64,000 bases of DNA. It comes from Alphaproteobacteria bacterium (GTDB taxonomy: Bacteria > Pseudomonadota > Alphaproteobacteria > SP197). This document shows positions 19,839 through 38,565 of the stretch, one piece after another (positions within the stretch are counted from its first letter, which is position 1; every line of letters begins with the position of its first letter). The translations under genes and the position numbers were made by a program. Below the pieces are notes generated by a model, which was not told the DNA's origin, searched no databases, and saw only the letters and a list, made by a program, of their open reading frames with translations. The stretch spans positions 2,784,001 to 2,848,000 of the forward strand of contig OZ245842.1 of assembly GCA_965228895.1 (NCBI GenBank), in the 5' to 3' direction.

Positions 19839-20143
19839 GTAACTCCGCCTCCCTCAGGCGCCACGGCGCTTATGCGCTCATCCCCCTGTCTAACCCGAAA
19901 TCGCGGCGCAGGAAACTCCACAGATGAACACAGGTCCGGCGCAAAAACGGCAGCGATTCCGCTGGGGATTCCAAGAAATCCCGCAACGTCACCGCCTTAG
20001 CAACGTGTCATACCACGGCCAACGTGTCTGAAATTGGGCGCTCCGGCCGCCCTTAAGAAATTCCGCGAGACTGTGTCTTCGCAACCCAGGGCTGAAGTCC
20101 CGGAACCCCGCCGAACCGCACCGCTCGGCCGCGGCGACGCCGG

Positions 20144-20172
20144 TTGACAGCCGCAAGGCGCATCGGCATAAG
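20144..20172 (+). promoter_or_regulatory. Sigma70-type promoter for tRNA-Gln
   Basis: TTGACA-N17-CATAAG about 35 nt upstream of the tRNA. Confidence 0.6.
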
Positions 20173-20207
20173 GCGCTGATACCGGCTGCGCCATGACGCA
20201 CCCCTGC

Positions 20208-20281
20208 TGGGGGATAGTTTAACGGTAGAACCTTCGGCTCTGACCCGAATAGTCCTGGTTCGAATCCAGGTCCCCCAGCCA
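20208..20281 (+). tRNA. tRNA-Gln (anticodon CTG)
   Basis: Acceptor TGGGGGA/TCCCCCA, anticodon arm TTCGG-CTCTGAC-CCGAA, GGTTCGAATCC T-loop, encoded CCA. Confidence 0.97.
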
Positions 20282-20469
20282 ACTCCTTAAACTTTTAAAA
20301 TCAAGATGTTCGACACACCTCCTAAGGTGTTGTCTAGGTTGTTTCAGGGCGGACTGCAGCCCGCCTGCCCCGTCGGCGCGACCGTGTGGCATCCCCGGAT
20401 TGCCTTGCCAACACGTCGGCAACGCAAGACACTTGTAAATTCTCGAAACATGCTGTCGGGGGGTTCACT

Positions 20470-21612
20470 ATGAGTAAGGTCATGAGTCTCGACGAGTACA
20501 AGGATGCGCTTGCCAAAAAGGCGCTGAGCCGTCGCGATGTTACCAAGGTCCTGGCCTCGGTCGGTGTCGCGACGGTATCGATGCCGGTCCTGCACAAGCC
20601 GGCGCTGGCCGAAGACGGCTGGCTCTATCTGTTCACCTGGAACGGGTATGAGTTGCCGGAGCTGCATCCGGCTTTCACGGAAAAGTACGGCCGCGAGCCG
20701 GATTTCTCGTTCTATGCCGATAACGACGAAGCGCTGGAGAAGATCCGCGCAGGCTTCGACGCGGACATCGTTTGCCCAAGCAGCAGTACGGTCATCCGCT
20801 GGATCCATGCCGGTCTGATCGAGCCCATCGATGTCTCCAGGCTCTCCAATTGGCCAAACCTGTTTCCGCAGCTGCAGCAGATCCGCGGCACCTTCGACGA
20901 CGACGGCAACCACTATTACGCGCCGTGGTCGTGGGGCAATTCGTCGATCGTCTTCCGGACCGACCTGGCGCCGGAATATGCCGGGCAGGAAAACCACACC
21001 TGGAAGATCCTGTGGGATCCCAAATACGCCGGCCGGGTCGCCATGCGCGACAACTGGGCCGGCACGACCATACCGGCCGGCTTGATCGCCGGTGTCGAGG
21101 ACCCCTTCGCCATGACCGACGACGAAATCGCCGACGTCCGCCGGCTGCTGCAGGAGCAACGCGAACTCAACAAGTTCTATTGGTCGAGCGAAACGGAAGC
21201 GCAGACCGCCATCGCCACCGGCGAGCTTGTCGCCATGTACGCATGGAACTCGGCCTATGCCCAGTTGAAGGAAGAAGGCGTGCCCGTCGAATACATGGTG
21301 CCGAAGGAAGGGTTGCTGACCTGGGTCGACGGCCATGTCATGACCAACACCTACATCGGTACGGAAGAGCAGCGTTACGACTATCTCGACGCCACCCTGT
21401 CGCCGGAAACCGGTGTCTTCATGATCGAAGAATACGCCTATGGGGCGGCCAACACGATCTCCTACGACCTCGCCGATCCCGAGGTTCTCGCATCATTGGG
21501 CCAGACCGACCCGGAGGCCATCCTGGCCGGCAGCCTGTGGTACGAGACCGTGCCGCCGGACATTCAGCGCAAGCTCGTCAACCTGCATGACGAGGTCATG
21601 GCCGGCATGTAG
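20470..21612 (+). CDS. PotD/PotF-like ABC substrate-binding protein, Tat signal
   Basis: LSRRDV, FTWNGY, ILWDPKYAGR, PKEG..TWVD. Confidence 0.85.
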   Translation: MSKVMSLDEYKDALAKKALSRRDVTKVLASVGVATVSMPVLHKPALAEDGWLYLFTWNGYELPELHPAFTEKYGREPDFSFYADNDEALEKIRAGFDADIVCPSSSTVIRWIHAGLIEPIDVSRLSNWPNLFPQLQQIRGTFDDDGNHYYAPWSWGNSSIVFRTDLAPEYAGQENHTWKILWDPKYAGRVAMRDNWAGTTIPAGLIAGVEDPFAMTDDEIADVRRLLQEQRELNKFYWSSETEAQTAIATGELVAMYAWNSAYAQLKEEGVPVEYMVPKEGLLTWVDGHVMTNTYIGTEEQRYDYLDATLSPETGVFMIEEYAYGAANTISYDLADPEVLASLGQTDPEAILAGSLWYETVPPDIQRKLVNLHDEVMAGM

Positions 21613-21629
21613 TTTTCCGGCATACCCTG

Positions 21630-21670
21630 AAGACGGGGGCGGTTGGATGTGATCCGACCGCCCCGTTTCT
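21630..21670 (+). terminator. Terminator-like hairpin
   Basis: GGGGCGGTTGGA...TCCGACCGCCCC followed by GTTTCT. Confidence 0.55.
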
Positions 21671-21683
21671 AGAGGCATAAGCG

Positions 21684-22439
21684 ATGACAGGAGAACTTGA
21701 AGGCAAGGTCGCGCTGGTTACCGGATCGGGACGCGGCATGGGGTTGGTCGATGCCGAGTTGATGGCCGGTGAAGGCGCGGCCATCATTCTCCATGATATC
21801 GATGCCGGGCTGGTTAAGCAGGCGGCCGGTCAGCTTCGCGCCGGTGGCGCCGACGTCTTTACCATTGTCTCCGACATCGCCGACATCGCCGCGACACGCA
21901 CGGCGATCGCCAAGGCCGAAGACCACTTCGGACGCATCGATATCCTGGTCAACAACGCGGGCAACGCGGTCGGCGGCGGCTTGGAAGACCTCGACGAAGA
22001 CGCTTATGACGCCGTCATGAACGTCCACGTCAAGGGCACGTTCTTCGCGACACAGGCTGTGGTGCCCGGCATGCAGCGGCGCGGCGAAGGGGCTATCGTC
22101 AACATCTCGTCGATCTGGGGCATGACGGGCTACGAGCATTCGTCAAACTACTGCGCGGCCAAGGCTGCCCTGCTCGGCTTCACCAAATCCTGGGCCAAGG
22201 AACTGGCGCCCTGGAACATCCGCGTCAACGCGGTCGCGCCCGGTTGCGTGCTGACCGAGATGACGATCCACAAAGGACAGGACTATCTCGACGAGCGCGC
22301 CAAGCTGATCCCGCTCGGCCGCTGGGCCGAGCCCAAGGAAATGTGCGAGGCCGTCATGTTCCTGGCCTCACCACGGGCCAGCTACATCACGGGGCAAGTC
22401 ATCAGCCCCAACGGTGGCGATACGATCGTCGGGATCTAA
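21684..22439 (+). CDS. SDR oxidoreductase (FabG-like)
   Basis: TGSGRGMG, NNAG, YCAAK, VNAVAPG. Confidence 0.92.
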   Translation: MTGELEGKVALVTGSGRGMGLVDAELMAGEGAAIILHDIDAGLVKQAAGQLRAGGADVFTIVSDIADIAATRTAIAKAEDHFGRIDILVNNAGNAVGGGLEDLDEDAYDAVMNVHVKGTFFATQAVVPGMQRRGEGAIVNISSIWGMTGYEHSSNYCAAKAALLGFTKSWAKELAPWNIRVNAVAPGCVLTEMTIHKGQDYLDERAKLIPLGRWAEPKEMCEAVMFLASPRASYITGQVISPNGGDTIVGI

Positions 22440-22445
22440 CGTGCC

Positions 22446-24482
22446 TTAGAACGTGATCTGCAGACCGGCCTGCCCGGCGATGGTGCGGCCGCTGTTGCTC
22501 TCCGCCGTCGCCTCGACGCGGCCGAACAGCGAAACGCCGTCATCGATCAGCGCCGACAACTCAACGCCCGCAAGCGCCGCGCCGACACTGTCCTCGCCGC
22601 CCGCATCGAAGTTGATCGACTGGCCCAGCAACACCGCATCGACATTGCTGTTGTCGAGACGCGTGCGGCCCTCGACGCCCGCATAGGGCGCGAAATAGAC
22701 GCTGTCCGCGTATTGCGGGATACGCACCGGCACCGTCACCTGGAACCGTCCGGTCAGCAGGTGAATGAACCGGTCGTCCACCGTCATGCCGCTCGAGGAG
22801 CCCGTCTCCGTATAGCTGTCCAAATGCGTGCCGGCATAGCCCACCTGCACGCTCGGGATCACCTCCTGGCCGTTGATCGACGCCGTGTGCGCCACCGACA
22901 GTTCCGGCGCAATGAAGTAGCCGTCGTAATCCGCCGACGCCGTCTCCATGCCGCCAGGCACCGTGTTGTTGGCGACGTTGCGGGTCAACTCATAGCGGCT
23001 CCAGCCGCCGGTCACCACGAGGTCGATCGCCCAGGGGCCGGATGCATAGCCGCCATAGGCGCCAATGAAAGCGCTCGAGATATCCTCGTCTTGGGAATCG
23101 AACTTTACGTCCAGTTCGCCATAGGAGCCGCCCAGGAACAGACCGGCGCGCGTCTCGTCGCCGACCGGCGTATCGACACCGGCGATAACGCCGCCCAGAT
23201 AGTGATCGGCGCCGATCGCCGGCGACGTGTCGCGCTGCTCGCGCGCCAATCCGAACACCTCGACCCACGCCTCGGTGCCCCACCCCATACCCATGGATGA
23301 CGCGAACGCCAGGGGGTCGTCGCCCTCAAGCGACGCCACCGCCTGGCCCGTCGAGCCGCCGAGCCGCTCGCTGCGCAGGCGCGAGAAGACGCTGCCGGAG
23401 ACCGAGTTGGTCAGGTCGAAGATGATGTCATCGGCCATGGCCAAGGCCGTCGGATCGACCACCGCGACCTGCAAGCCGTTCACCGCGAACGGCGCGCCGT
23501 TGGCAACGACGAACGGTGCGCTACCGGTGAACGTGTTGTTGACGTTCAGACCGTTCGTAACATCCAGCGTGTTGCCAGCCGCAAAGTTGAGTGGCCCCTG
23601 AATGTTCGAACCTGGGAACAGGCGCAGCGTGTTGCCGCCGCCCGTGAACAGCACGGCGGCCGATCCCACGCCAGTCGCACTGAGTTGACCACTGTTGTTG
23701 ACCGTGTTGTTCGTCGCACCTTGGACGCTATGGGCAATCAGACCCGACGTCGAGATCGTTCCGGCGTTCGTGATCGTGCTGTTGTTGGTGACCAAAACAC
23801 CATGTGCGGCACCACCCTGGGTTACGATATTGCCGCTGTTGTTCACTGTCGTGCCGGTGCCAGCGGAGATGCCAATGGCGTTAAGGCCCAGTGTCGAGAT
23901 CGTCCCGCTGTTGCCAATGTTGTTGTTGTTGATGGCTAGGATACCAATCGCGCCTATGCCGGTTGTCGAGATCGTGCCGGAATTGCCGATCGTGTTGTTG
24001 TTCAGTGCGTTGATGCCATGTGCGATACCGCCCAACGTCGTGATAGTGCCACTGTTGAAGATCGTGTTGTTGCTGACAACCGTGATGCCGTGCGCGCCGC
24101 CGCCCAACGTCGAGATCGTGCCGGAGTTACCGATGGTGTTGCCGTTGACGCCCACGATGCCGAAGGCTGCCCCCAAACCGAACGTCGAGATCGTGCCCGT
24201 GTTGTTGATCGTATTGTTGTTGACGACGAGGATGCCGACATCGGCGACGCCGAGGGTGGTGATCTGCCCCTCGTTGTTGATCGTGTTCCGATCGACACCG
24301 GCAATGCCCGTACCGCCGGTCAAGATCCGGCCGCCAGGCTTCACGACGCCGGTCTGCCCGTTGGTCAGGAACTGGGTAAAGAAGACCGTCTGACCGTTGT
24401 CGACGACAAAGTCCGCATGAGCGCCCGCCACGCCAACCATCGTGGCTGCGGCAACCGCCGCGCCCTTCAACCAACACCGCAT
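22446..24482 (-). CDS. Autotransporter with repetitive beta-helical passenger
   Basis: Signal peptide (AHA/D), N/G/T-rich repeats, C-terminal beta-barrel with YTETG and terminal Phe. Confidence 0.85.
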   Translation of the reverse strand: MRCWLKGAAVAAATMVGVAGAHADFVVDNGQTVFFTQFLTNGQTGVVKPGGRILTGGTGIAGVDRNTINNEGQITTLGVADVGILVVNNNTINNTGTISTFGLGAAFGIVGVNGNTIGNSGTISTLGGGAHGITVVSNNTIFNSGTITTLGGIAHGINALNNNTIGNSGTISTTGIGAIGILAINNNNIGNSGTISTLGLNAIGISAGTGTTVNNSGNIVTQGGAAHGVLVTNNSTITNAGTISTSGLIAHSVQGATNNTVNNSGQLSATGVGSAAVLFTGGGNTLRLFPGSNIQGPLNFAAGNTLDVTNGLNVNNTFTGSAPFVVANGAPFAVNGLQVAVVDPTALAMADDIIFDLTNSVSGSVFSRLRSERLGGSTGQAVASLEGDDPLAFASSMGMGWGTEAWVEVFGLAREQRDTSPAIGADHYLGGVIAGVDTPVGDETRAGLFLGGSYGELDVKFDSQDEDISSAFIGAYGGYASGPWAIDLVVTGGWSRYELTRNVANNTVPGGMETASADYDGYFIAPELSVAHTASINGQEVIPSVQVGYAGTHLDSYTETGSSSGMTVDDRFIHLLTGRFQVTVPVRIPQYADSVYFAPYAGVEGRTRLDNSNVDAVLLGQSINFDAGGEDSVGAALAGVELSALIDDGVSLFGRVEATAESNSGRTIAGQAGLQITF
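23637..24287 (-). repeat. About nine tandem 24-aa (about 72-nt) repeats N.GTIST.G..A.GI
   Basis: Visible in the translation; GTCGAGATCGT recurs in the DNA. Confidence 0.85.
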
Positions 24483-24582
24483 TGTTGAGATCCCCTCACC
24501 CGCAATTGATGGAGTTGAGTTTAGTACAGCTTCCAACAACTGTCCAAGAATTCAGTTATTACAATTGCTTATCGCAGATTCT

Positions 24583-26475
<1,893 letters not shown>

Positions 26476-26539
26476 ACCCCGGTTTAACGTCCCCGCTGTA
26501 TTTCCCCAACCGCCAATCCGGCAGAACCTCTGGATAAAA

Positions 26540-27892
26540 TCAGATCAACCCGTCCTCGCGCACGGCCAGAAGCGAATCCTGGAACGCCGTTGCCACCTTA
26601 TCGATCTGCTCAGGCGTATGGGCGGCCGAGGTAAAGAACAGGTGGATGCCCGGCAGGATGACGCCGTTGTTAAGGAGGTGGACGTCGAACTCCTGCTGGG
26701 CCGCGTGGTTCTCGTCGCCGAGGTCGCGTGAGCTTTCGATGCCGCGCTTGAAGTGCATATAGAAGATCGAGCCGGCGTTCATCAGCGTGGCGGCGATCTG
26801 GCGTTCCTCGCAGAACGTGTTGACCGCGGCTGCCAGCCGGTCGCCCTCGCTGTTGAGCGCCGGGAACAACGTCTCCTTGTTCTCCTTCATGTGCGCGATG
26901 GTCGCGACGCCGCCGGCCATGGTCAGCGGGTTGCCGGAGAAGGTGCCGCCCATGAACACACCCTTGGGGTCGCCCCAGGGTCTGCCGAGCAGGTCCATGA
27001 CCTCGGCCCGGCCGGAGAGCGCGCCGACCGGCAGGCCGCCGGCAAGCGCCTTGCCCCAGGTGATGAGATCGCCGGTGACGCCGAAATACTCCATGCCGCC
27101 GCCGAAGCCGAGGCGGAAGCCGGTGACGACCTCGTCGAGCAGCAGCAGGACATCGCTTTCGCGGCAGACCTCGGCCAGCCCTTTCAGCCAAGGCCCGACA
27201 TCATCGCGCGGCACCGTATTCTGCACCGGCTGCACCATGACGAGCGCCAACTCGTCCTTGTGGGCGCGGATCAGCTCGAACGCCTTGGGGTCGGCATAGG
27301 GCAGCATCATCATGGTGTCGTCGCGGATGGTCTCGGGAACGCCGGTGCCCATCAGTTTCGGTCCGGGTTCCGAGCGCGGGCTCTCCGGATCGGCCTTGAC
27401 CAGGGCGTAGTCGTGGGCGCCGTGGTAACAGCCGTCGAACACGGCGACCCGGTTCTTGCCGGAATAGCCGCGCGCGGCACGCATGCCGTACATGGTGGCT
27501 TCGGTGCCGGAATTGCAGAAGATCGTCCGTTCGGCGCCCGGTGCTGCATCGGCAATCAAATGGGCGAGCTCTTCCTGGCGCTCGTTGTGCAGCCCAAAAT
27601 GCCAGCCGCGCGTGAGCTGGTCATGCAACGCGTCCTCGACCACCTTCGGGCGATGGCCGAGCACATGAGGTCCGAACCCCATGGTGAGGTCGATGTATTC
27701 GTTGCCGTCGACATCGGTCATGGTCGCGCCTTCCGACGAGCGGATATAGATCGGCGTCGGCATCTGGAAGGTCGGCACCACCTCGATCGGCAGCACGTCG
27801 GCGCTTTTTTCGTGCACCTCACGGGACTTGGGCGTGCGGTCGGCCAGGGACTGGCGGGCCCGGGCGCCCGCGTTATCGGCAGATACGGTCAT
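26540..27892 (-). CDS. Class-III PLP aminotransferase (HemL/GSA-aminomutase-like paralogue)
   Basis: DVDGNEYID, NSGTEA, YHG.HD, DEVVTGFR, GKALAGGLP, GTFSGNP. Confidence 0.88.
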   Translation of the reverse strand: MTVSADNAGARARQSLADRTPKSREVHEKSADVLPIEVVPTFQMPTPIYIRSSEGATMTDVDGNEYIDLTMGFGPHVLGHRPKVVEDALHDQLTRGWHFGLHNERQEELAHLIADAAPGAERTIFCNSGTEATMYGMRAARGYSGKNRVAVFDGCYHGAHDYALVKADPESPRSEPGPKLMGTGVPETIRDDTMMMLPYADPKAFELIRAHKDELALVMVQPVQNTVPRDDVGPWLKGLAEVCRESDVLLLLDEVVTGFRLGFGGGMEYFGVTGDLITWGKALAGGLPVGALSGRAEVMDLLGRPWGDPKGVFMGGTFSGNPLTMAGGVATIAHMKENKETLFPALNSEGDRLAAAVNTFCEERQIAATLMNAGSIFYMHFKRGIESSRDLGDENHAAQQEFDVHLLNNGVILPGIHLFFTSAAHTPEQIDKVATAFQDSLLAVREDGLI

Positions 27893-28013
27893 CGTTTTTT
27901 CTCCTCAACGATGCGGCGCACGCGGAGCCTAGCACAGCGCTGGGCGGTTCGCTTCGTCTTCCTGGGATCGCCGTTGTAGAGTTGATTGATCGATATGCGA
28001 GGGGAACGCGACC

Positions 28014-28712
28014 ATGCTGCTGACACCGACCGAGATGGAACGGCTGACCATCTTCACCGCCGCCGAACTGGCTCGCCGGCGCCGCGGGCGCGGCCAGAAA
28101 CTGAACCATCCCGAGGCGGTCGCCATTATCGCCGACGAACTGATGGAAGCCGCGCGCGACGGCCACACGCTGGCCGAGGTCATGACGTTGGGTACGACGC
28201 TGTTGACGACCGACGACGTGCTGCCCGGCGTCGCAGGTCTGATGTCGCTCCTGACCCTCGAAGGCCAGTTCCCGGACGGCCCGAAGATGATCACCATCCA
28301 CAACCCCGTGCGGCCAGGCAAAGAGGCAACGAGCGAGGCGACCCAGCCCGGCGAGGTGCTGACCGCCGACGGCGACATCGAACTGAACGCCGGGCGCGAG
28401 CGCGTCACCCTGACCGTGTTGAACACCGGCGACCGGCCGGTGCAAGTCGCCAGCCACTATCATTTCTTTGAGGCGAACAAGGCGCTTGAGTTCGACCGCG
28501 CCGCTGCGTTCGGCAAACGGCTCGACGTCCTGGCCGGCGCCGCCGCGCGCTTCGAGCCCGGCGAATCGAAAGACGTCAACCTGGTCGCCATCGGCGGCAC
28601 CGGCGAGGTCAGCGGGCTGAACAACCTGACTGAAGGACAGATCGCCGATCCCGCCGTCAAGCAGGTGGCGCTCGCGCGCGCCAAGGCACGCGATTATCGG
28701 GGCGCTGAATAA
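28014..28712 (+). CDS. ureAB: Fused urease gamma-beta subunit
   Basis: KLNHPEA, ARDG, FPDGPK..T.H.P, then [23 protein letters not shown]. Confidence 0.92.
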
Positions 28713-30421
28713 TGGCGACCGTCTCGCGCGATGCTTACGCCGCGGCGTTCGGGCCGACCACCGGCGACCGCGTGCGCCTGGGCGACACCAGCCTTCTGGC
28801 GCGCGTCGAAAAGGACCACGCGGTCTATGGCGAAGAGCTTCTGACCGGGTTGGGCAAGACCCTGCGCGACGGCCTGGGCGTCGATGCCGGCGTCACCACC
28901 GCCGACGGCGCCCTCGACGTGGTCGTGCAGAACGCGCTGATCATCGATCCCGTGCTCGGTATCGTCAAAGCCGATATCGGCATCACCGACGGGCGCATTG
29001 TCGGCATCGGCAAGGCCGGCAACCCTGCCATCATGGCCGGTGTCGACAAGAACCTGATCGTCGGCCCGTCGACCAAACACTTCATGGCCGAAGGCATGAT
29101 CGTGACGCCCGGCGCGATCGACGTGCACGCCCACTACGCGCAACCCGAAGAAGTCTGGCATGCGCTCTCATCAGGCATGACGACCATGATCGGCGGCGGT
29201 TTCCCCGGCTGCTGGTCGGTCGACTCCGGCGGCCATTGGGCGAACTCGCGCATGCTGAAGGCGACCGAAGCCTTTCCCATGAACTTCGGCTTGTTCAGCC
29301 GTGGCAGCGCACACAAACCGGCGGGGATCGCCGAGCAGATCCGCTCCGGCGTCATCGGCGTCAAGATCCACGAAGACATCGGCGCCATGCCGGCGACCAT
29401 CGACTGCTGTCTGACCGTCGCCGACGATCTGGATTTCCAGGTGCAGCTGCACACCGACACCATGAACGAGGCCGGTTTTTTCGAGCGCACCATGGAGGCG
29501 ATCGCCGGGCGCACGATCCACATGTACCACACCGAAGGGGCCGGCGGCGGCCATGCGCCCGACATCATCCGCTGTAACGGCGAGATCAACTGCCTGCCGT
29601 CGTCGACCAATCCGACGAACCCCTTTACGTTGAACGCGCTCGACGAACATCTCGACATGATGATGCTGTGCCACAGCCTGTCGCCGGACGTGCCGGAAGA
29701 TGTCGCGTTTGCCGACAGCCGCCTCAGGCCCCAGTCGATGGCGGCCGAAGACGTGCTGCACGACGTGGGCGCGATCAGCATGTTCGGCTCCGATGCCGAA
29801 GGCATGGGCCGCACCATGGAGGTCGTGACGTCGCTGTGGAAACTGGCGTCGAAGATGCGCGACGAACGCGGGCCGTTGGCCGAGGAACCGTTCGACAACG
29901 CGGACAACGCGCGCATCCTGCGCTACCTCGCCAAGGTCACGATCAATCCGGCGATCACGTTCGGCATCGCCGATTACGTCGGCAGCCTGGAGCCCGGCAA
30001 GATGGCCGACTTCGTCATGTGGCGTCCGGCCTTCTTCGGCATCAAACCGTCACAGGTCGTCAAGGCGGGCATGCAGGTCTGGGGCATCAACGGCGACGCG
30101 GCGGCAGCCTTAAGCGGTCTGGAACCGACGCGGATGCGGCCGAGCTGGGGCGGCGTCGGGACCGCGCCCAACGCGCTGTCGGCCGCCTTCGTTCATCCGT
30201 CCGCGCTCGACGACGACATCGCCGGACGCTTCGACATCGCCAAACCGCTACTGCCGCTTTCCGGCACGCGCAAGCTATCGAAGGAGGACATGGCCCTGAA
30301 CGATGCGCTGCCCGACATCCGCGTCGACAGCCAGACCTTTGACGTGTTCGTCGATGGCGACCTCGCGACAACCGAACCGGCGCGCGAGGTGAAGCTCAAC
30401 CGGCTCTACATGCTGCGCTAG
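28712..30421 (+). CDS. ureC: Urease alpha subunit-like amidohydrolase, divergent
   Basis: [53 protein letters not shown]; start overlaps the ureAB stop. Confidence 0.9.
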
Positions 30422-30906
30422 ATCAACAGACCGACCAGAATGGTCGCGGGGGTCAGAATGTCCCACCAGAAAATGGGGCCGGCATTGTTGATGGCGAAGT
30501 TCTGCTCGCGGAGCATGTCACGAATGTGGACGACGGCCGCGCCCCACAAGAAGGATGCCGCCATCAGGAAAACAACCCAGCCCGCGCCCTCTCCGATGAA
30601 GGCCGCGGCAATGGCGGCGAGGCCAATGCCCAGATTGGCGGCACCGACCTCCTGTTGAAACGGACTGGTCTGCCAACCGATTGATTTCGCCACCATCTCG
30701 GAGGCCAGCAGGTGCCCGGTTGCCGCCCACAGGCTGTTCAGGCCTAGCGAGACAAGCAGCATCCACTGGGCGAGCGGCGACAGGCTCGCGGCCGCGCCTG
30801 GCAATTCGACGCCGAACACACCCAACGCAAGCGCGATCACAAAAAGCGCGACCGGCAAGAACGCGACAACCTGACCCATGACGCCCCCATGAGAACTGGC
30901 CGTCAA
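30418..30906 (-). CDS. Integral membrane protein (DUF6790-like)
   Basis: GH......A.SIGW..SPFQ.EVG.ANL and N.GP.FW.D motifs; four TM helices. Confidence 0.7.
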
Positions 30907-30924
30907 TGAGCCACAGGTACGGTC

Positions 30925-30977
30925 AAAAAGAAAGCCGCCCGTTCGACCGTACGCCGCGGTCGGGAAAACGGGCGGCC
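30925..30977 (-). terminator. Intrinsic terminator after GNAT gene
   Basis: Minus strand GCCGCCCGTT...AACGGGCGGC followed by TTTCTTTTT. Confidence 0.65.
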
Positions 30978-30989
30978 ACCCTCTTTCAT

Positions 30990-31580
30990 TTAGATAGGCT
31001 TTGTCAGAAGAACCCAGTTTTCCGCATCGTTCTTCCAGCCGTCCTTGACCATCGGGCGTCTGGCGGTTTCCGCATAGCCGTTGGCTTCGTAGAGCCGCCG
31101 CGCACCCTTGTTGGCATCGGTCACGATGATGCTGAGGCCCTTTTTGCCTTCCCTAACGGCAATCTTGTCGGCAAGCGCGAGTAATGCGGAACCATGGCCC
31201 TTGCTCCGGTGCTCTGGATAGGTCGCGAGCACATTCACGTACCAGGTGCCGGGCGCCATGGCTTCGAGTTCCTGGCGCGGCACAACGACGGCAGGCATCG
31301 CGTCATAGTCGAGGGGTGCGGGCTCATCCGCCAACGGATAGCCGATCATGCTCGAGATGACGTCGCCACCGAACTCGACGACGATGGCGTTCTTGTAGGA
31401 AAAGCTACCCTCTTCCCGTCGCGTACGGCGCTGGCCGACATCCCACGGATTCTCACCGGGCTCGGCCATACCTTCCCATAGATGAACCGGCATCCCCTCG
31501 CCGGCATAGTTGATCAGTTGAGCAAGCAGAAAGGCGTCGTCAGGCTGCGCCCGGCGGTAGGGGCGATCGAGATCGATCAT
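30990..31580 (-). CDS. GNAT acetyltransferase
   Basis: WYVNVLAT.PEHRSKGHGSALL, N.GARRLYE..GY. Confidence 0.88.
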   Translation of the reverse strand: MIDLDRPYRRAQPDDAFLLAQLINYAGEGMPVHLWEGMAEPGENPWDVGQRRTRREEGSFSYKNAIVVEFGGDVISSMIGYPLADEPAPLDYDAMPAVVVPRQELEAMAPGTWYVNVLATYPEHRSKGHGSALLALADKIAVREGKKGLSIIVTDANKGARRLYEANGYAETARRPMVKDGWKNDAENWVLLTKPI

Positions 31581-31731
31581 GCTGCTTCTTCATCCTGTTC
31601 CCTCACCTTGGCCAATCGCACACCGTCCCGGCGCAGCCGCGATCAAGGCTGGCAGGCCGGCGTTTTTGCCGGTTTACTGGTCCCCCCAAAGGACCAAACC
31701 GCGTGAGCCATATGATGTCGGGAGGACGCCA

Positions 31732-32937
31732 ATGCAATCCTACTTAAGAGATCAAATTGACTGGGTACAACCGTTCCCGCCCGAGGAGTACACCGCGCGC
31801 CGCGGCCGGGTGCGCCAGGCGCTCGCAGAGGCCGGGCTCGATGCGATCTATGTGACCAACCCGGCGGACCTTAACTGGCTCACCGGCTACGACATGATCT
31901 GGTTTCACCTGCAGAACCTGACCGGGCTTCTGGTGCGCGCCGACAGCGACGACACCGTCTTTTTCGACGGCGTCGGCCATACCACTATCGTCTCGACCAC
32001 GCCGGAAATACGCGAGGCCGTCATGATCACCCGTGAAGACAACGCGATCGAGATCATCGTCTCGGGCATCGCCGAGCGCGGGTTGGCGAAGGCGAAGATC
32101 GGCGTCCAACCCTGGGGCTACGCGCCGCACGCAACGACATCCGACCAGTTCAAGGCGGCGCTGGAGGCCGGCGGCGCGACGGTCGAAGATCATTCGTTCC
32201 TGGTCGAGCACCAGCGTTTCGTCAAATCGCCGCTGGAGGTCGAGACCGTGCGCAAGGCGTCGGCGATGGCCGATGACGCGATGACCGCCGCGCGTGACGC
32301 GATCGCCGAAGGTGTCATGGAAACCGAATTGGAAGGCATCATCATGGCGTCGATGATGAAGGCCGGCGGCGGTTACCCCGGTATCCGCACCATGATCGGC
32401 ACGGGCCCGCGCGCGGGCACCCACCACAGCCCGCCGCAGCACCGCAAGATCAAACAGGGCGATCTCGTCTTCGTCGACTTCTGCGGTTGCCTGCACCGTT
32501 ACCACGTCAACCTGAACCGAACGTTTTCGCTCGGCGAGCCGGACCCGCGCTGGGCCGACATGATGGACAAGTCCGCCGGCTGCATCGATGCGATCCAGGC
32601 CGCCGTTAAGACCGGCGACATGATGTCGAAGGCGCAGGACGTCGCCGACCACTACATCGATCAGGTCGGCCTCAGGCAGTACGTCTGGTTCGTCGGCGGC
32701 TATTCGCTCGGCATCGCGGTGCCGCCGGACTGGTGCGGCAACCACTGGGTCAAGCCGCGCCTCGACTTCGGCGACCGCGAGCTCGAACCCGGCATGGTCT
32801 TCAACATGGAAAATCAGTTCGACGTCTGGGAAGACTGGCCCGGCGGCTCCGGCGCCGCCTATATCGATACTTTCCTGGTGACCGAAGACGGGTTGGAGGT
32901 GCTGTCGAAACTGCCGCGGAACCTGGTTGTGGTTTAG
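31732..32937 (+). CDS. M24 (pita-bread) hydrolase, creatinase/ectoine-hydrolase-like
   Basis: F..EEY..R, WLTGY, VKSPLE, RYH..L.RT, GYSLG, LEPGMVF; GGAGG RBS. Confidence 0.85.
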   Translation: MQSYLRDQIDWVQPFPPEEYTARRGRVRQALAEAGLDAIYVTNPADLNWLTGYDMIWFHLQNLTGLLVRADSDDTVFFDGVGHTTIVSTTPEIREAVMITREDNAIEIIVSGIAERGLAKAKIGVQPWGYAPHATTSDQFKAALEAGGATVEDHSFLVEHQRFVKSPLEVETVRKASAMADDAMTAARDAIAEGVMETELEGIIMASMMKAGGGYPGIRTMIGTGPRAGTHHSPPQHRKIKQGDLVFVDFCGCLHRYHVNLNRTFSLGEPDPRWADMMDKSAGCIDAIQAAVKTGDMMSKAQDVADHYIDQVGLRQYVWFVGGYSLGIAVPPDWCGNHWVKPRLDFGDRELEPGMVFNMENQFDVWEDWPGGSGAAYIDTFLVTEDGLEVLSKLPRNLVVV

Positions 32938-33073
32938 AGCAGATCCCGTTTTGATGAAATCGCTCCGCGATTTCGTCACGGCAGGTGAATCTGCTCTGCT
33001 CATAGATGGAGAGCGGATTCACATGGCTAGGTAGAGTTGTCCAACGGTTCCACCTAGCCATGATCCGCTCTAG
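32934..33073. repeat. 140-bp bipartite palindromic repeat (CIR/RIME/BRU-RS-like), copy 1
   Basis: TTAGAGCAGATCC...GAATCTGCTCT spacer GAGAGCGGATTC...GATCCGCTCTAG; second copy at 42488-42627. Confidence 0.88.
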
Positions 33074-34038
33074 CGCCAGATACCCTGATCGGCCGCGAAC
33101 CGGTCGGTCGCGGCGACGATGGCCTCGCCGATACCGGCCTCGGACACGGCATGGCCGGCGTTCGGCACGATGACGAGGTCACCGTCAGGCCAGACCTTCG
33201 CGAGGTCCCAGGCCGTCATTAACGGCGCCTCAAGATCGAGGCGGCCCTGCACCATGACGCCTGGAATGCCGACCAAAGCGTCGGTGCCGTTCAGCAACGG
33301 GTCCTCGGCCAGCCATGCGCCGTGGTGGAAGTAGTGCGCGACGATGCGCGCTCTGGCCAAACGGAATTTGGGATCGGCCCAAGTGGGCGATGGTGTGGTA
33401 TCGGGACCGGTGGTCAGCGATCCCTCCCAGTCGTGCCAGTCGTTCGCCGCCCTAAGACGGACCGCCTCATCAGGGTCGTTCAGGAGATGGTGATAGGCCG
33501 TCACAAGATCGCCGCGCGCATGTTCCGCCACGCCCGCCCGAAACCGGTCCCATTCTTCAGGGAACAACGGCGCGATCCCGCGATAGAGCCAATCGATCTC
33601 CGACGCCCGGCACATCGTCACGCCGACAAGAACCAGTGCGGCAACCTCTTCCGGATGTTGTTCGGCATACGCCAGACCGAGGGTGCAGCCCCAGGAATGT
33701 CCGAAGATCAGCCAACGTTCTATGCCGAGGTGCTGGTGAAGACATTCCATGTCGCGCAAAAGATGCGCCGTCGTGTTGACGGCCATGTCACAATCCGGGT
33801 CGCTGGCATGCGGCGTGCTTCGTCCGCAGCCGCGCTGATCGAACAGGATGATCTTGTAGATATCGGGGTCGAAGAAACGCCGCGTTGCCGGCGAGCGTCC
33901 GGAACCAGGTCCGCCGTGAAGCACAACCACGGGCTTGCCGTCGGGCCTACCGCAAGTCTCCCACGCAACCTGGTTGCCGTCGCCGACGTCCAGCAGACCT
34001 TCGGCGTAGGGTTCGGTCAGCGGATAGAGAGTTGCCAT
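33070..34038 (-). CDS. pip: Prolyl aminopeptidase (proline iminopeptidase)
   Basis: LHGGPGSG, FDQRGCGRSTP, GHSWG, QGRLD, AGH. Confidence 0.92.
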   Translation of the reverse strand: MATLYPLTEPYAEGLLDVGDGNQVAWETCGRPDGKPVVVLHGGPGSGRSPATRRFFDPDIYKIILFDQRGCGRSTPHASDPDCDMAVNTTAHLLRDMECLHQHLGIERWLIFGHSWGCTLGLAYAEQHPEEVAALVLVGVTMCRASEIDWLYRGIAPLFPEEWDRFRAGVAEHARGDLVTAYHHLLNDPDEAVRLRAANDWHDWEGSLTTGPDTTPSPTWADPKFRLARARIVAHYFHHGAWLAEDPLLNGTDALVGIPGVMVQGRLDLEAPLMTAWDLAKVWPDGDLVIVPNAGHAVSEAGIGEAIVAATDRFAADQGIWR

Positions 34039-34076
34039 GCCCCGTCCAAACGGCGTCCGTCGTCAGGTCTTGTAAC

Positions 34077-34236
34077 CCCCTCACCCAGCTCCGGCTAGGG
34101 CGCTATCGCACCCAAGCCTTCACATCCCTCTTCCCCACCATCGTGGGGGCGAGGATTAGGTTGGCGGCACACATCGCCCTCTCCCACGGTTTGGGAGAGG
34201 GCGGGCCCCGACGCGAAAGCGGTGGGAGGGTGAGGG
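34077..34236. repeat. Inverted pair of REP-like CCCTCACCC / CCCTCTCCC-GGGAGAGGG elements
   Basis: CCCCTCACCC at 34077; CCCTCTCCCA-cggtt-TGGGAGAGGG at 34177-34201; GGGTGAGGG at 34228. Confidence 0.7.
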
Positions 34237-34250
34237 TTGGTTGACGCGTC

Positions 34251-35096
34251 CTAACTCGTCGGCTGGGCATTGGGGAAGAAGAGTTGTTCGCCATCGATCT
34301 GGAAGGCGGCGATGGCATCCTGACCTTCGGGCGACAGCACCCAGTCGATGAAAGCCTGGCCGTGGTCGACCTTGACGTGGGGGTACATCTGGGGGCTGAC
34401 CAGGATGATGCCGTACTGGTTGAACAGCCGATCATCGCCCTCGACGATGATCTCAAGATCGCCCTTGTTCTGGAACGCCAGCCACGTCGCCCGGTCGGTC
34501 AAGGTGTAAGCGCCCAGACCGCTTGCCGTGTTGAGCGTCGCGCCCATGCCGGAACCTGTCGCGCGGTACCACGGCCGGTCCGCCGGCTCGATGCCCGCCT
34601 CGCCCCACAGGCCAAGTTCCTTCTTGTTGGTGCCGCTGTCGTCGCCGCGCGAGGCGAAGACCGCGCCCTGCTCGGCAATTTGGCCAAGCGCCGACACGAC
34701 GTCGCTTGAACCCGCGATACCGGCGGGGTCGGCGGACGGGCCGACCAGAACGAAGTCGTTGTACATGACGTCGTGACGGCTAATGCCGAACCCTTCGGCA
34801 ACGAATGCCTCTTCCGACGGTTTGTGGTGCACGAAGAGCACGTCCGCATCGCCGTCCCGGGCCTGTTGGATCGCCTTGCCGGTGCCGACCGCGACAACGC
34901 GCACCTGAATGCCGGTCTTCGCCTCGAACATCGGCAACAGATAGGCGAAGAGACCGGAGTTTTCCGTCGACGTGGTCGACGACACGATGATGAAATCTTC
35001 GTCGTCGGCCATGGCGGGCGCCGCCGCCAACAGAGCGGCGGCCGCGAAGGCCAAGACGGTACGGCGTGTCCATGCGCCAACGCGGTCTTTCACCAC
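34251..35096 (-). CDS. tupA: Tungstate ABC transporter substrate-binding protein
   Basis: STTSTENSGL, GTG.A, MYNDF, SRGDDSGT, GMG.TL, DRATW, N.Y. Confidence 0.9.
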   Translation of the reverse strand: MVKDRVGAWTRRTVLAFAAAALLAAAPAMADDEDFIIVSSTTSTENSGLFAYLLPMFEAKTGIQVRVVAVGTGKAIQQARDGDADVLFVHHKPSEEAFVAEGFGISRHDVMYNDFVLVGPSADPAGIAGSSDVVSALGQIAEQGAVFASRGDDSGTNKKELGLWGEAGIEPADRPWYRATGSGMGATLNTASGLGAYTLTDRATWLAFQNKGDLEIIVEGDDRLFNQYGIILVSPQMYPHVKVDHGQAFIDWVLSPEGQDAIAAFQIDGEQLFFPNAQPTS

Positions 35097-35863
35097 AACA
35101 GTTCTCCTCTGATAAACGCGGCCGCTTCGGCCGTCTCGGGTTGATCGAAAAAGGCTTCCGCCGGCTGCTTCTCCAGCAACCGGCCTTGGTGCATGAAGAG
35201 GATCTCGTCGGCCAGACGGCGCGCCTGACCGAGATCGTGGGTGGTCATCACGATCTTGACGCCGGCGCGATGAATCTGAGCGACGATGGTCTCGACCGCG
35301 CGGGTCGCGGTCGGATCGAGGCTCGCTGTCGGTTCGTCCAGGAACAGCACCTGGGGTTCGGTCGCCCAGGCACGCGCCAGGGCCAGGCGCTGCTGCTCAC
35401 CGCCGGACAGCACCCGCGCCGAACGGTCGGCGACCGATGTCAGGCCGGACAGCGCCAACGCGTCGGCGACCCGGGCTCGTCGTGCGTCCCGCGCCATGCC
35501 GTGGCGCTTCAGCGCATAGTCGATATTGGCGGCGGCCGAGCGGCGCAGGTGGACGGGTTTTTGAAACACCATCGCCTGGTGGCGCCGCGCGATGTCCGCC
35601 TGTTCGGTGCCAGCCCAGCTCAAGCTGCCGCTGGTCGGCGAGATGAGCCCGTGACAAAGCCGCAGGAAGAGGCTCTTGCCGGCGCCGTTCGGGCCCAGCA
35701 CGACCGTCCGCGGCCCGCCCCCCAACGTGACCGTGAGATCATCGATCAGGGTCTCGCCCTGGATCCGATAACAGACCGAGCGCGCGGCCAGCGGCAAGGT
35801 CGCCTGCCCCGGCGCCGAGCGTGTCATGGGCGCGCCGACCGCAATGGCGAGGTCCGCGTTCAT
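35090..35863 (-). CDS. tupC: Tungstate ABC transporter ATPase
   Basis: GPNGAGKS, LSGGEQQR, LDEPT; ATGA overlap with tupB. Confidence 0.88.
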   Translation of the reverse strand: MNADLAIAVGAPMTRSAPGQATLPLAARSVCYRIQGETLIDDLTVTLGGGPRTVVLGPNGAGKSLFLRLCHGLISPTSGSLSWAGTEQADIARRHQAMVFQKPVHLRRSAAANIDYALKRHGMARDARRARVADALALSGLTSVADRSARVLSGGEQQRLALARAWATEPQVLFLDEPTASLDPTATRAVETIVAQIHRAGVKIVMTTHDLGQARRLADEILFMHQGRLLEKQPAEAFFDQPETAEAAAFIRGELLW

Positions 35864-36564
35864 GCGTAACCGCGCGACGCCACACCGCGCATGCCCATGG
35901 CGATCGCGTTGACGCCCAGGGTGATCGCCAGCAACACGACGCCCAGGCCCAGCGCCAGGGCGAGGTCGCCGCGGCTGGTCTCCAGCGCGATGGTCGTCGT
36001 CATGACGCGGGTGACGCCGGCGATGTTGCCGCCGACGATCATGACCGCGCCGACCTCGGCACTCGCCCGGCCAAAGCCTGCCAGGATGGCGGTGATCAGA
36101 CTGTAGCGGCCTTCCCACAACAGGGTGAGCGCCAGCCGCCCCTTCCCCACGTTCAGCGAACGCAGCTGTTCGTCATATTCGCCGTGGAGATCGGCAATGG
36201 TCTGGCGGCTCAGCGCGGCGATGATCGGGGTGACCAGAAGGCATTGCGCGATCACCATCGCTTCGGGCGTAAACAGCAGGCCGAGTTCGCCGAGCGGGCC
36301 GGCGCGCGACAGCAGGATATAGATGGCGAGCCCGGCCACCACAGGCGGCAGTCCCATGAAGGCGCTGGTGACGGCAATCAGCGCGCCGCGCCCGGGAAAC
36401 CGTGAGAGCGCCAGCCAGGCACCGAGCGGCAGGCCGATCAAGGCCGCCAGCAACACCGCGGTCAGGCTGACCCGGAGCGACAGGCCGACGATGCCGTAGA
36501 ATGTGGCATCGAAGCCGGTCACAAGAGCCCAGGCATGGGTTAGCGCATCGGTCGAGTCGGTCAT
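35860..36564 (-). CDS. tupB: Tungstate ABC transporter permease
   Basis: GLPPVV.GL, SR.GPLG, GFGRA.AEVGA, GGNI..TR..TT.I. Confidence 0.9.
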   Translation of the reverse strand: MTDSTDALTHAWALVTGFDATFYGIVGLSLRVSLTAVLLAALIGLPLGAWLALSRFPGRGALIAVTSAFMGLPPVVAGLAIYILLSRAGPLGELGLLFTPEAMVIAQCLLVTPIIAALSRQTIADLHGEYDEQLRSLNVGKGRLALTLLWEGRYSLITAILAGFGRASAEVGAVMIVGGNIAGVTRVMTTTIALETSRGDLALALGLGVVLLAITLGVNAIAMGMRGVASRGYA

Positions 36565-36669
36565 GAAGGCCCACAGTCGCCAAACTGTACCTGATGTGCC
36601 CTAGGACATTAGAAGCCTCAATGGACGCAGAAAACAGACAGGATATGCAGGATTGTGCAGCATGCCCGC

Positions 36670-37599
36670 CTACCGCGCGGCAGCCTCGACCTCGGGACAC
36701 GGGCCGATTTCGACCTGAATCGTCGCGTGCTCGACGCCGAAATCGTTCGCCAACGCCTCGCTCACCGCATGGAGGACGTCCTGCTGGTCGGCCTCGTCAC
36801 GGACCCGGACATGCAAGGTCATGACCGGCCGGCCCTCCGTCAGGAGCCAGATATGCAGATGGTGGACGTCCTCGATGGCCGGAATCGCCGCCATCAGGTG
36901 CTCGCGGATACGGGCAGCCTCCATGTCGTCGGGCGTACCCTCGAGCAGAATATGGCCGGCATCGCGCACCAGGCCGACGGCCGTATAGATGATGAGCCCG
37001 CAGATCAGCAGCGACAGCAGCGGATCGATCGGCATCCAGCCAGTGAAGTAGATGATGGTGCCGGCGCCGAGCGCCGCAACAGATCCCAGCAGGTCGCTGA
37101 GCACATGCAGCGAGGCGCCGCGCATGTTGATGCTGCTCCGGTCGCCACGGTGCAGGATGATGAAGCCGACGATGTTGACCAAAAGGCCGAGCGCAGCGAC
37201 GCCCATCATTAGCTCGGATTCGACAGTGACCGGTTCGACGAAGCGCGTGACCGCCTCGATCACGATCCAAATCGTGATGATGACGAGCGCGATACCGTTG
37301 GAGAACGCGGCGATAACCTTGAGCCGATGATAGCCGTAGGAACGTGACGCGTCCGCCGGTCGCCGCCCGATGCGAAACGCGAACCAGGCAAGCGCCAAGG
37401 CACCGGCGTCTGTCAACATGTGCCCGGCATCGGCCAGCAGTGCCAGGGAGCCGGACAACAGGCCGCCGACCACCTCGACAAGCATGAAGCTCGCCGTCAT
37501 GACCAGAACGATCAGCACACGGCGTTCGCTGTCTGCGTCCACGTCGTGGCTGTGGCCGTGACCGTGGTGGTGGCTATGCCCCTTGTGGTCGTGGCTCAT
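36670..37599 (-). CDS. Cation diffusion facilitator (ZitB/CzcD-like)
   Basis: His-rich N-terminus, SLALLADAGHMLTD, LHVLSDLLGS, HHLHIW, HATIQ.E. Confidence 0.92.
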   Translation of the reverse strand: MSHDHKGHSHHHGHGHSHDVDADSERRVLIVLVMTASFMLVEVVGGLLSGSLALLADAGHMLTDAGALALAWFAFRIGRRPADASRSYGYHRLKVIAAFSNGIALVIITIWIVIEAVTRFVEPVTVESELMMGVAALGLLVNIVGFIILHRGDRSSINMRGASLHVLSDLLGSVAALGAGTIIYFTGWMPIDPLLSLLICGLIIYTAVGLVRDAGHILLEGTPDDMEAARIREHLMAAIPAIEDVHHLHIWLLTEGRPVMTLHVRVRDEADQQDVLHAVSEALANDFGVEHATIQVEIGPCPEVEAAAR

Positions 37600-37647
37600 T
37601 GCGGTTCCCGGGACCCGGCTCCGATGCCGGGCCCGAGACTACCATGC

Positions 37648-38373
37648 CTAGGTACTGGCGCCGGAAAACCGTTCGAACAACCGACCGGCGAGCCAGCCCA
37701 GCGCCGCCCAGAAGACGAAAGCCGTCACCAGCGATGCGGCGACAAAATGACCGGCCAGTTCCGGCGGCACGGCGCCGCCTATCTGGGCTGGCTGCGGCGC
37801 ACCGACCACGTGCGGTAGAGCGATCAAGACGATGCCCACAGCCCGCATCCACCACTGGTTGCCCAGGACCAGAAGCCACAAGCCGGCGCCTGTGGCGACG
37901 GCGGCAAACAGCCACCAGACCTGGCGCGCGCCGAGTTCGGCAGCCATGGCGCCCGGCACCTCCGGCGGCAGGCCAAGGGACGGTGCGATGGCGAACGTGG
38001 CAAAACCCGCCATGCCCCACATGACACCGCGCCGCGCATCGACCGGCTTGCCGGCCAAAACGAACCCGGCGACCAGCAGCAACGCGAAGGCGACGCCGGT
38101 CAAGAGGTTGGTGAGCAGGGTATAGAACGACCGCTCGATACCGTCTTGCGGCCCCCAAGCCCCTTCGTCGCCATGCGCTTCATCGCCGTGGGCCAGGATA
38201 AACGTGCCGCCCTCATAGAGGTCGCTCAGGAAAGCATGATCGGCCTCGCCGCCGCCTTCAAACTCCTCGGCGTGCAAAATGATTGGCGTGGTCGTGAATT
38301 CCTGGATCACCGTGATCAGGAAACCCGCCAGCAGCCCCGACAGCAGTGCCGAGGCCAGAACCTTGCGTATCAT
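37648..38373 (-). CDS. cbtA: Cobalt transporter subunit CbtA
   Basis: P.I..AE.FE, W.P.DG.ER, LGLPPE.PG, RQ.WW, LPH..GAP. Confidence 0.92.
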   Translation of the reverse strand: MIRKVLASALLSGLLAGFLITVIQEFTTTPIILHAEEFEGGGEADHAFLSDLYEGGTFILAHGDEAHGDEGAWGPQDGIERSFYTLLTNLLTGVAFALLLVAGFVLAGKPVDARRGVMWGMAGFATFAIAPSLGLPPEVPGAMAAELGARQVWWLFAAVATGAGLWLLVLGNQWWMRAVGIVLIALPHVVGAPQPAQIGGAVPPELAGHFVAASLVTAFVFWAALGWLAGRLFERFSGAST

Positions 38374-38382
38374 GAACCCCTC

Positions 38383-38565
38383 CTAGTGGCAGGGGAACGC
38401 GAAGGCGTGGCGTCCGTCGTGAGCGGCGTTGTGAATCACCTCGGAGCCGGCAAAGCCGACACCCATCAACAGAAATGTTCCCAGAAGCAGTGCGATAACC
38501 GCTGGAATGGCACGCTGGGACAGGCTGTGTGCGGCGATTGAGGTACGTAGAACTTGGTCTGACAT
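38383..38565 (-). CDS. cbtB: Cobalt transporter subunit CbtB
   Basis: One TM helix followed by HNAAHDGRH..AFPCH. Confidence 0.92.
   Translation of the reverse strand: MSDQVLRTSIAAHSLSQRAIPAVIALLLGTFLLMGVGFAGSEVIHNAAHDGRHAFAFPCH

Follow-up and report, generated by a model that had tools for sequence, protein, structure and literature searches.

A probable urease isoenzyme with fused gamma-beta subunits and a remodelled pocket entrance in an alphaproteobacterium

The ureAB-ureC gene pair in contig OZ245842.1 of an alphaproteobacterial genome (assembly GCA_965228895.1) raises the question of whether a urease with a rewritten substrate pocket still acts on urea. The pair lies within a stretch of 64,000 nucleotides (positions 2,784,001 to 2,848,000 of the forward strand; hereafter the window) and consists of a fused gamma-beta subunit gene followed by the gene for the alpha subunit, UreC (Table 1). 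An original prediction, made from the sequence alone, held that this UreC keeps the metal ligands of urease and hydrolyses a different amide or ureide instead of urea. Our analysis confirms the first part and does not bear out the second: the pair probably encodes a nickel-dependent urease isoenzyme that belongs to the fused-(AB) short-loop lineage and has a remodelled pocket entrance. Judged from its sequence, the enzyme most likely still splits urea, with nickel presumably loaded in trans.

The ureC frame is intact (569 codons without an internal stop) and its product contains the Pfam domains PF00449 Urease_alpha at residues 3-122 (E 2.9e-46) and PF01979 Amidohydro_1 at residues 130-454. 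UreC passes the NCBIfam urease-alpha equivalog TIGR01792 (736.7 bits, cut-off 680) and scores 779 bits against the subfamily NF009686 (cut-off 354); it falls below the cut-offs of the narrower equivalogs NF009685, NF009834 and NF010591. HMMER alignments to PDB sequences run from end to end, the jack bean enzyme scoring E 2.6e-187 and Klebsiella aerogenes 1ejw_C E 6.6e-182 (609 bits), and identity to solved ureases is about 50% over the full length. UreAB carries Urease_gamma (residues 1-99) and Urease_beta (residues 112-209) domains and scores 332.9 against NF009671, 'bifunctional urease subunit gamma/beta' (cut-off 243). A Shine-Dalgarno-like GAGGGG run precedes the ureAB ATG, the start ATG of ureC overlaps the ureAB stop in the sequence TAATG, and the two genes are predicted to be translationally coupled. 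The fused ureAB gene stands immediately 5' of ureC in all 14 related genome loci.

The residues that carry out the chemistry are all retained. They were examined by aligning 112 non-redundant UreC proteins, comprising 36 long-loop canonical ureases, 53 short-loop sequences of other kinds and 23 members of the short-loop group that contains the query, which we refer to as clade A; K. aerogenes numbering was taken from the HMMER alignment to 1ejw_C, and a UreC from Sporosarcina sp. (L054) served to check the Sporosarcina pasteurii numbering. The six metal ligands of the query, H139, H141, K218, H247, H273 and D361, correspond to K. aerogenes H134, H136, carbamylated K217, H246, H272 and D360, and do not vary in any clade-A row. 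The substrate-binding and flap residues H220, D222, H321 and R337 correspond to H219, D221, H320 and R336 in K. aerogenes and to H222, D224, H323 and R339 in S. pasteurii. Across the whole alignment (112/112), H134, H136, K217, H219, D221, H246, H272, G277, H320, R336, D360 and M364 (K. aerogenes numbering) are unvarying. The alignment to 1ejw_C thus contains every motif that the original prediction had listed as retained: HAH at 139-141, K218-I-H220-E-D222, LH247TD, YH273TEG, S-D361 and C320-H321.

The shell around these residues is another matter, and here the six motif changes claimed from the sequence all proved real when aligned to K. aerogenes UreC. FGGGK is replaced by TGLGK, GGGTGPAAGTHATTCTPG by a version four residues shorter, the W222 motif by HEDIG, CHHL by CHSL, SDSQAMGR by SDAEGMGR, and NASIPTPQP by AAALSGLEP. 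In query numbering, the pocket has Ile in place of Trp at 223, Ser in place of His at 322, Glu in place of Gln at 363 and Gly in place of Ala at 364, and the loop at 164-174 is shortened. The canonical pocket shell (the TGPAxGTxATTCTPG loop with Ala170 in S. pasteurii numbering, W222, H321, Q362, A363 and NASIPTPQP) is therefore wholly replaced. The substitutions are absent from the 36 canonical sequences, in which G47, W222, H321, Q362 and A363 (K. aerogenes numbering) do not vary. In clade A the same positions carry L, V or A at 47, I or L at 222, T, S, M, G or other residues at 321, Glu at 362 in 20 of 23 rows, and Gly at 363. The second flap His (query position 322) is lost in all 23, and the segment after GGG, shorter by four residues, reads [FYW]-P-G-C-W-[SA]-[VI]-D-S-G-G.

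How these changes bear on urea binding can be judged from the S. pasteurii enzyme. According to the review of Mazzei, Musiani and Ciurli (PMC7433671), the urea NH2 group bound at Ni(2) hydrogen-bonds to the backbone carbonyls of Ala170 and Ala366, the distal NH2 group is held by Gly280 and Ala366, the urea oxygen receives a bond from His222, and the flap is locked by Asp224, His323 and Arg339. The changed segments include or adjoin these urea contacts, in keeping with their predicted location around the active site. At the substituted positions, however, the contacts described in that review are made by backbone atoms and would be preservable despite substitution. MAFFT places Ala170 opposite Ser172 of the query and Ala366 opposite Gly364, while in the HMMER alignment the K. 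aerogenes equivalent of Ala170 is an insertion; the loop alignment is ambiguous because the two programs place Ala170 differently.

A structure model of UreC, one of the checks proposed with the original prediction, answers the question of fold and not that of pocket shape. The AlphaFold model, built on a 37-row alignment, has a pTM (predicted template-modelling score) of 0.92, and its 39 best PDB matches are urease chains only (TMq 0.89-0.94; 0.93-0.94 for ranks 1-7), the next fold being hydantoinase at 0.47. The model is silent on the shape of the pocket and its loop because the predicted local distance difference test score is <50 at residues 165-172, 277-280 and 331-333.

Phylogenetic analysis, another of those checks, places the substitutions in a defined group. 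In a first tree of 112 rows, the short-loop sequences form one group of 76 rows (SH-aLRT, the Shimodaira-Hasegawa-like approximate likelihood-ratio test, 100; branch 0.36), within which clade A is a sub-group of 23 rows (SH-aLRT 100). A more careful second tree of 58 rows supports clade A at 100/99 (UFBoot, ultrafast bootstrap/SH-aLRT) and the split between canonical and short-loop sequences at 100/100. On these trees, the pocket substitutions define a monophyletic clade A inside the fused-(AB) short-loop lineage. Other short-loop sub-clades carry loop versions of their own: HEDW/CHH with GGSLGPITVGIDSGG, HEDY with GGGHG..F.VDSGG, and HEDF without the flap Cys. Among the query and its 120 best homologues, the clade-A loop occurs together with HED[ILV]G in 50 of 121 sequences and all four marks occur in 47, while the canonical long loop occurs in none of the 121.

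Clade A, across which UreC identity ranges from 67 to 96%, is uncommon. An even sample of 400 other genomes from this class contains 100 with a UreC match, of which only G215 (71%) exceeds 65% full-length identity to the query; its coordinates coincide with those of G004. A partial match in G102 reached 65%. A scan of genome contigs yielded 14 clade-A loci among the 80 kept, and a metagenome scan 6 further ones among the 80 kept, of which L141 duplicates L015. In a library of representatives at 50% identity, the urease family falls into few clusters, which made the library unfit for tree sampling.

Within the window, no accessory gene adjoins the ureAB-ureC pair, and the same is true of most clade-A loci. 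A two-gene, fused-subunit pair of this kind recalls the Helicobacter mustelae enzyme UreA2B2, on whose structure (3qga) the model superposes with a TM of 0.93, and one could imagine a nickel-independent (for example iron) urease that assembles itself without accessory proteins. We consider this very improbable, since the accessory genes are present elsewhere in the genomes. Our set of clade-A genomes numbers 11 (G000-G005 and G406-G410, where G000 is the genome studied here and G406 and G407 are multi-contig metagenome-assembled genomes), and UreG is found above the cut-off in all 11. This genome has a contiguous ureE-F-G-D operon without an adjoining structural urease gene (G000:C1:3989974-3992591; L088:6974-9591, minus strand). 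Accessory operons standing alone in this manner lack structural genes at all eight such loci inspected; they contain E-F-G-D in G000, G001, G003, G406 and G408, F-G-D in G407 (at a contig end), and only G-D as detected in G002 and G004. In G408, the stand-alone operon is additional to a canonical cluster with its own ureG. Where clade A is the only urease of a genome, complete ureEFGD operons persist although no other client is present, and in L020 and L139 the accessory genes lie directly 5' of the clade-A pair in the order ureE-F-G-D-(AB)-C. The presence of UreG in every genome, the stand-alone operons and the fused arrangement in L020 and L139 together argue strongly that clade-A enzymes are matured by UreDEFG and are thus nickel enzymes; for the query enzyme, such action would occur in trans.

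The surroundings of the eight stand-alone operons have nothing in common to all of them. Partial recurrences are an EamA-type open reading frame by ureE (L088, L130) and an Aminotran_4-type gene (L088, L130, L134, L135). An arginase-family gene lies about 2 kb from the operon in this genome only. In L136, the other short-loop copy of a relative, the order is EF(AB)CGD.

The description of the gene as a urease paralogue also holds, since the genome contains a second fused pair, ureAB (233 residues) and ureC (569 residues), at G000:C1:3873339-3875759 (L087:7339-9759, minus strand). This second UreC is 64% identical to the query and belongs to another short-loop sub-clade, with the marks GGGHGILFGVDSGG, HEDYG, no flap Cys and SDSQGMGR. 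Its neighbours are a NikA-like family-5 solute-binding protein, LysR regulators, an MttB-family methyltransferase and a DAO oxidoreductase. Beside it, two overlapping open reading frames (L087:9931-10389 and 10365-10793, plus strand) each encode half of a PhyH (phytanoyl-CoA dioxygenase) domain, which points to either a frameshift in the gene or an error in the sequence. No long-loop, canonical UreC was found in this genome.

Could the clade-A copy then be a catalytically silent or non-enzymatic remnant? The analogy would be the ure2 cluster of Brucella, reported to be transcribed without measurable urease activity (PMC2868824; PMC2492869). In the second of these reports, however, Brucella ure2 falls in a Yersinia-type group and not in the fused-(AB) lineage. 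The frame of the query is intact, all catalytic residues are present, identity within clade A is 67-96%, and the dN/dS of ureC is 0.05-0.10 against four close orthologues. The gene is under strong purifying selection, and we regard a silent paralogue as the most improbable of the readings discussed here.

If the enzyme is a working urease, its mode of action can be outlined. UreAB and UreC would be co-translated, the resulting (gamma-beta)/alpha enzyme would receive CO2 and Ni from the stand-alone ureE-F-G-D operon, and urea would be hydrolysed by the standard bridging-hydroxide mechanism. That mechanism is plausible because all the residues needed for it are present, namely the six ligands together with His220, Asp222, His321 and Arg337. 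The remodelled pocket and flap shell would be expected to alter kinetics, flap gating or inhibitor sensitivity in the same reaction.

Evidence on urea itself comes from other parts of the genomes. This genome encodes a UT-family urea channel (141 bits). Urea carboxylase was not found above the cut-off in G000, G001, G002, G003 or G005. With a urea channel, no canonical UreC and no urea carboxylase, at least one of the two short-loop enzymes of this genome should handle urea. In the sister short-loop clade C (HEDW/CHH), ureG is adjacent, and in G379 a true UrtA (537 bits) is encoded within about 1.2 kb of the clade-C locus. The channel gene itself lies directly 3' of an isochorismatase-family hydrolase gene, followed by a ChrR-like cupin gene (G000:C1:4234810-4236710; L218:5810-7710). 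The isochorismatase family includes biuret and N-carbamoylsarcosine hydrolases, and this locus may form a small unit for the handling of ureides that is not linked to the urease genes.

Several observations weigh against a plain urease. Positions fixed in all 36 canonical ureases carry conserved residues specific to clade A, and the positions replaced include the loop that supplies the carbonyl equivalent to that of Ala170 and the residue adjoining the Asp ligand. A canonical urease occurs alongside clade A in 4 of the 11 genomes (G001, G002, G004 and G408), two of which are only 2.8 Mb in size, and another short-loop paralogue occurs alongside it in 4 (G000, G001, G409 and G410), which suggests that the copies are non-redundant. 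No known urea gene adjoins a clade-A pair at the loci examined, and UT and UreI matches are absent from the four genomes in which clade A is the only urease. UrtA is above the cut-off in none of the five genomes that were searched for urea carboxylase, although neither absence discriminates between the readings, because two of these genomes have canonical ureases. The open-access literature that we searched yielded no enzyme data for any urease of the fused-(AB) lineage. The genes that do recur near clade-A pairs are an MFS transporter, a sulfotransferase-like gene, TauD-like dioxygenases and class-III aminotransferases.

These points lend some support to a nickel amidohydrolase built on the urease scaffold, whose main substrate would be an N-substituted urea or ureido compound, or a cationic guanidine or amidine, with catabolic modules that vary by sub-clade. 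We consider this possible and rather unlikely. It would account for the fact that 7 of 11 genomes retain clade A along with a canonical or another short-loop urease, for the conserved signature of the clade (the [FYW]-P-G-C-W loop, I or L at 223, Glu363 in 20 of 23 rows and the loss of His322) and for the fact that each short-loop sub-clade has its own version of the loop; the added acidic residues Glu363 and Asp171 might suit a cationic substrate.

The neighbourhoods of the clade-A pairs bear on this reading from both sides. No partner other than ureAB is universal, and the loci fall into five context classes. In the first, which comprises the window, L007, L144 and L009, a divergent HemL-like class-III aminotransferase gene lies 5' of ureAB; it adjoins ureAB in the window, L009 and L144, while in L007 about 3.3 kb with three genes (TetR, FMO-like and ABC_membrane_3) separate the two. 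The aminotransferase orthologues are 71-91% identical to that of the window, and the linkage spans UreC identities of 72-96%; the protein scores 318 against the NCBIfam glutamate-1-semialdehyde aminomutase subfamily, below the cut-off of 398. In the second class (L008, L015-L017 and the duplicate L141), the pair sits between the housekeeping genes mutL and rsmD-like. The third (L010-L012, L139 and L140) has the sulfotransferase-like gene, which starts about 10 bp past ureC in these five loci and is followed by another class-III aminotransferase and by DAO/GCV_T dehydrogenases. In the fourth, an orthologous MFS transporter gene lies downstream at five loci (L009, L013, L014, L018 and L019), immediately 3' of ureC in L013 and L018, and TauD-like dioxygenase genes lie upstream of ureAB at three (L013, L014 and L019), adjacent and divergent in L014 and L019. 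The fifth is represented by L020, with ureEFGD upstream and an enolase-superfamily gene downstream. The transporter, dioxygenase, sulfotransferase-like and aminotransferase linkages count for the amidohydrolase reading; that the neighbours vary by sub-clade, that one class lies between mutL and rsmD, and that no single pathway partner is conserved all speak against it.

Two further findings count against the amidohydrolase reading. The M24 gene of the window (31579-32937), through which a route from creatine to urea was considered, does not encode a creatinase: among solved proteins it matches the ectoine hydrolase DoeA best (98 bits, against 48 for creatinase), and it is below the cut-off of every NCBIfam family listed for it and is best described as DoeA-like. 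Guanidine and other riboswitches were not found near any of the 15 loci, neither in positions 20000-40000 of the window (E<=1) nor, at the gathering score, in the 14 clade-A loci and L087 and L088.

A broader form of the amidohydrolase proposal, which we hold to be equally tentative, extends it to the whole fused-(AB) short-loop lineage. Its members would be nickel amidohydrolases whose sub-clades, each with its own pocket loop, act on different small nitrogen compounds; clade A would act on a substituted urea, ureido or guanidinium-type compound, which the linked MFS transporter would bring into the cell and which the linked TauD-like dioxygenase or aminotransferase would help to process.

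Set against both proposals, and against the different substrate of the original prediction, is the complete conservation of the side chains that bind urea and carry out its hydrolysis, together with the occurrence of clade A as the sole UreC found in 4 of 11 genomes (G003, G005, G406 and G407), all of which keep ureG. The joining of ureEFGD to the pair in L020 and L139, and the position of the sister clade beside a true UrtA, lean the same way. On balance we favour a true urease, for which the full catalytic set, the equivalog pass, the seemingly dedicated maturation genes, the sole-copy genomes, the link of the sister clade to urea transport, the presence of a urea channel without a canonical urease and the strong purifying selection all count.

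The features of the locus are collected in Table 1. The intergenic region between the aminotransferase gene and ureAB contains no Rfam element at E<=1.

Table 1. Positions in the window of the urease pair and associated features
Feature	Positions	Strand	Basis
ureAB, fused urease gamma and beta subunits, 232 residues	28014..28712	+	Pfam, NCBIfam
ureC, clade-A short-loop urease alpha subunit, 569 residues	28712..30421	+	Open reading frame, domains, family score, PDB alignment
Shortened clade-specific loop, residues 164-174, in place of the canonical TGPAAGTHATTCTPG segment	29201..29233	+	Alignments
Divergent intergenic region, 121 bp, separating the HemL-like aminotransferase gene from ureAB; presumed to hold the promoter	27893..28013	unstranded	Sequence reading
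HemL-like class-III aminotransferase gene, divergently transcribed; recurrent neighbour	26540..27892	-	Pfam Aminotran_3

Some further features of the window and of related loci are recorded here. A DUF6790 gene (30418-30906, minus strand) converges on ureC, with which it overlaps by 4 bases at the stop; it is also found in L138 and is missing from L007, where a GNAT gene is next, about 0.2 kb downstream. The Rfam model 5_ureB_sRNA, a Helicobacter pylori antisense RNA, matches the 5' region of ureC in antisense (28884-29161, minus strand) at 39.9 bits, against a gathering score of 40, and scores 46.9 at L010:8156-8449 and 41.6 at L012:3643-3930. These matches are probably an echo of conserved coding sequence. 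Between the SDR and aminotransferase genes lie a 697-residue autotransporter (22446-24539, minus strand), with a carboxy-terminal beta-domain and a passenger that matches no Pfam family, and a RecQ helicase (24583-26475, minus strand). The orthologous SDR gene is downstream of ureC in L009, and the neighbourhood has therefore been rearranged. In 6 of the 15 loci, a tRNA gene lies upstream of the clade-A pair at a distance of 1-8 kb (tRNA-Gln in the window, at 20208-20281 on the plus strand, and in L013; tRNA-Val in L014 and L019; tRNA-Met in L010 and L012), a hint that the pair travels with island-like insertions. Further downstream in the window, a cobalamin riboswitch (100.6 bits; 38618-38841, minus strand) precedes the gene for a CbtA-type cobalt transporter (37648-38373, minus strand), which is adjoined by a cation-efflux (CDF) gene (36670-37599).

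To our knowledge, urease is regarded as acting on essentially one substrate, with an active-site shell that hardly varies. In the lineage described here, this shell has been rewritten systematically, differently in each sub-clade, while the residues that bear the chemistry stay fixed, and a single small genome can hold up to three urease types. If clade A is a plain urease, it reveals how far the pocket, supposed to be invariant, can be dispensed with, which matters for the design of inhibitors and for surveys of urease genes in the nitrogen cycle. If it is not, annotation over-calls 'urease' and there is a nickel-hydrolase activity still to be discovered. The separation of a stand-alone ureEFGD operon from a distant structural pair also warns that the lack of nearby accessory genes does not amount to nickel independence.

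The system is not of a new kind; it is a distinct variant within a lineage already described as a gene-cluster type. A third urease cluster structure, ureEF(AB)CGD, was reported in 2008 for Bradyrhizobium sp. BTAi1 and Pseudomonas syringae B728a, with the ure(AB)C of Streptomyces grouped therewith (PMC2492869), and ure(AB)C and ure(AB)CFGD are listed as cluster types elsewhere (PMC5489568). Other reported arrangements are ureEFABCGD in Mycobacterium smegmatis (PMC4222082) and, in Roseobacteraceae, a ureEFACGD operon accompanied by urtABCDE (PMC10608839). What may be new are the pocket signature of clade A and the regular split of a stand-alone ureEFGD operon from a remote ure(AB)C pair.

Compared with the canonical nickel ureases (K. 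aerogenes UreABC, 1ejw/2kau; S. pasteurii; jack bean, 3la4), the query enzyme has the same fold (TM 0.93-0.94), about half of its residues in common, the six metal ligands, the His-Asp-His-Arg catalytic and flap set, gamma and beta partner domains, and UreD, UreE, UreF and UreG encoded in the genome. It differs in having a gamma-beta fusion, a loop after GGG that is short of four residues, another sequence in place of NASIPTPQP, and structural genes that lie apart from the accessory genes; in addition, W222 has become I/L, H321 S/T or another residue, Q362 E, A363 G and G47 L/V. The iron urease UreA2B2 of H. mustelae resembles the pair in its two-gene, fused-subunit layout, in the lack of adjacent accessory genes and in fold; unlike it, clade-A genomes keep ureEFGD, apparently for the clade-A enzyme, and the query UreC scores lower against UreA2B2 (577.9 bits) than against K. 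aerogenes. With the fused-(AB) lineage the pair has in common a fused gamma-beta gene that precedes ureC, the two-gene ure(AB)C layout and the accessory order E-F-G-D; UreA2B2 and the named published fused-(AB) examples stand outside our trees, and it is gene order that suggests membership of the short-loop superclade for the latter. Unlike the published ureEF(AB)CGD clusters, the (AB)C genes of clade A lie apart from ureEFGD or, in L020 and L139, after ureD, and not between ureF and ureG, and within the fused-(AB) lineage clade A forms a separate and well-supported sub-clade with a pocket signature of its own.

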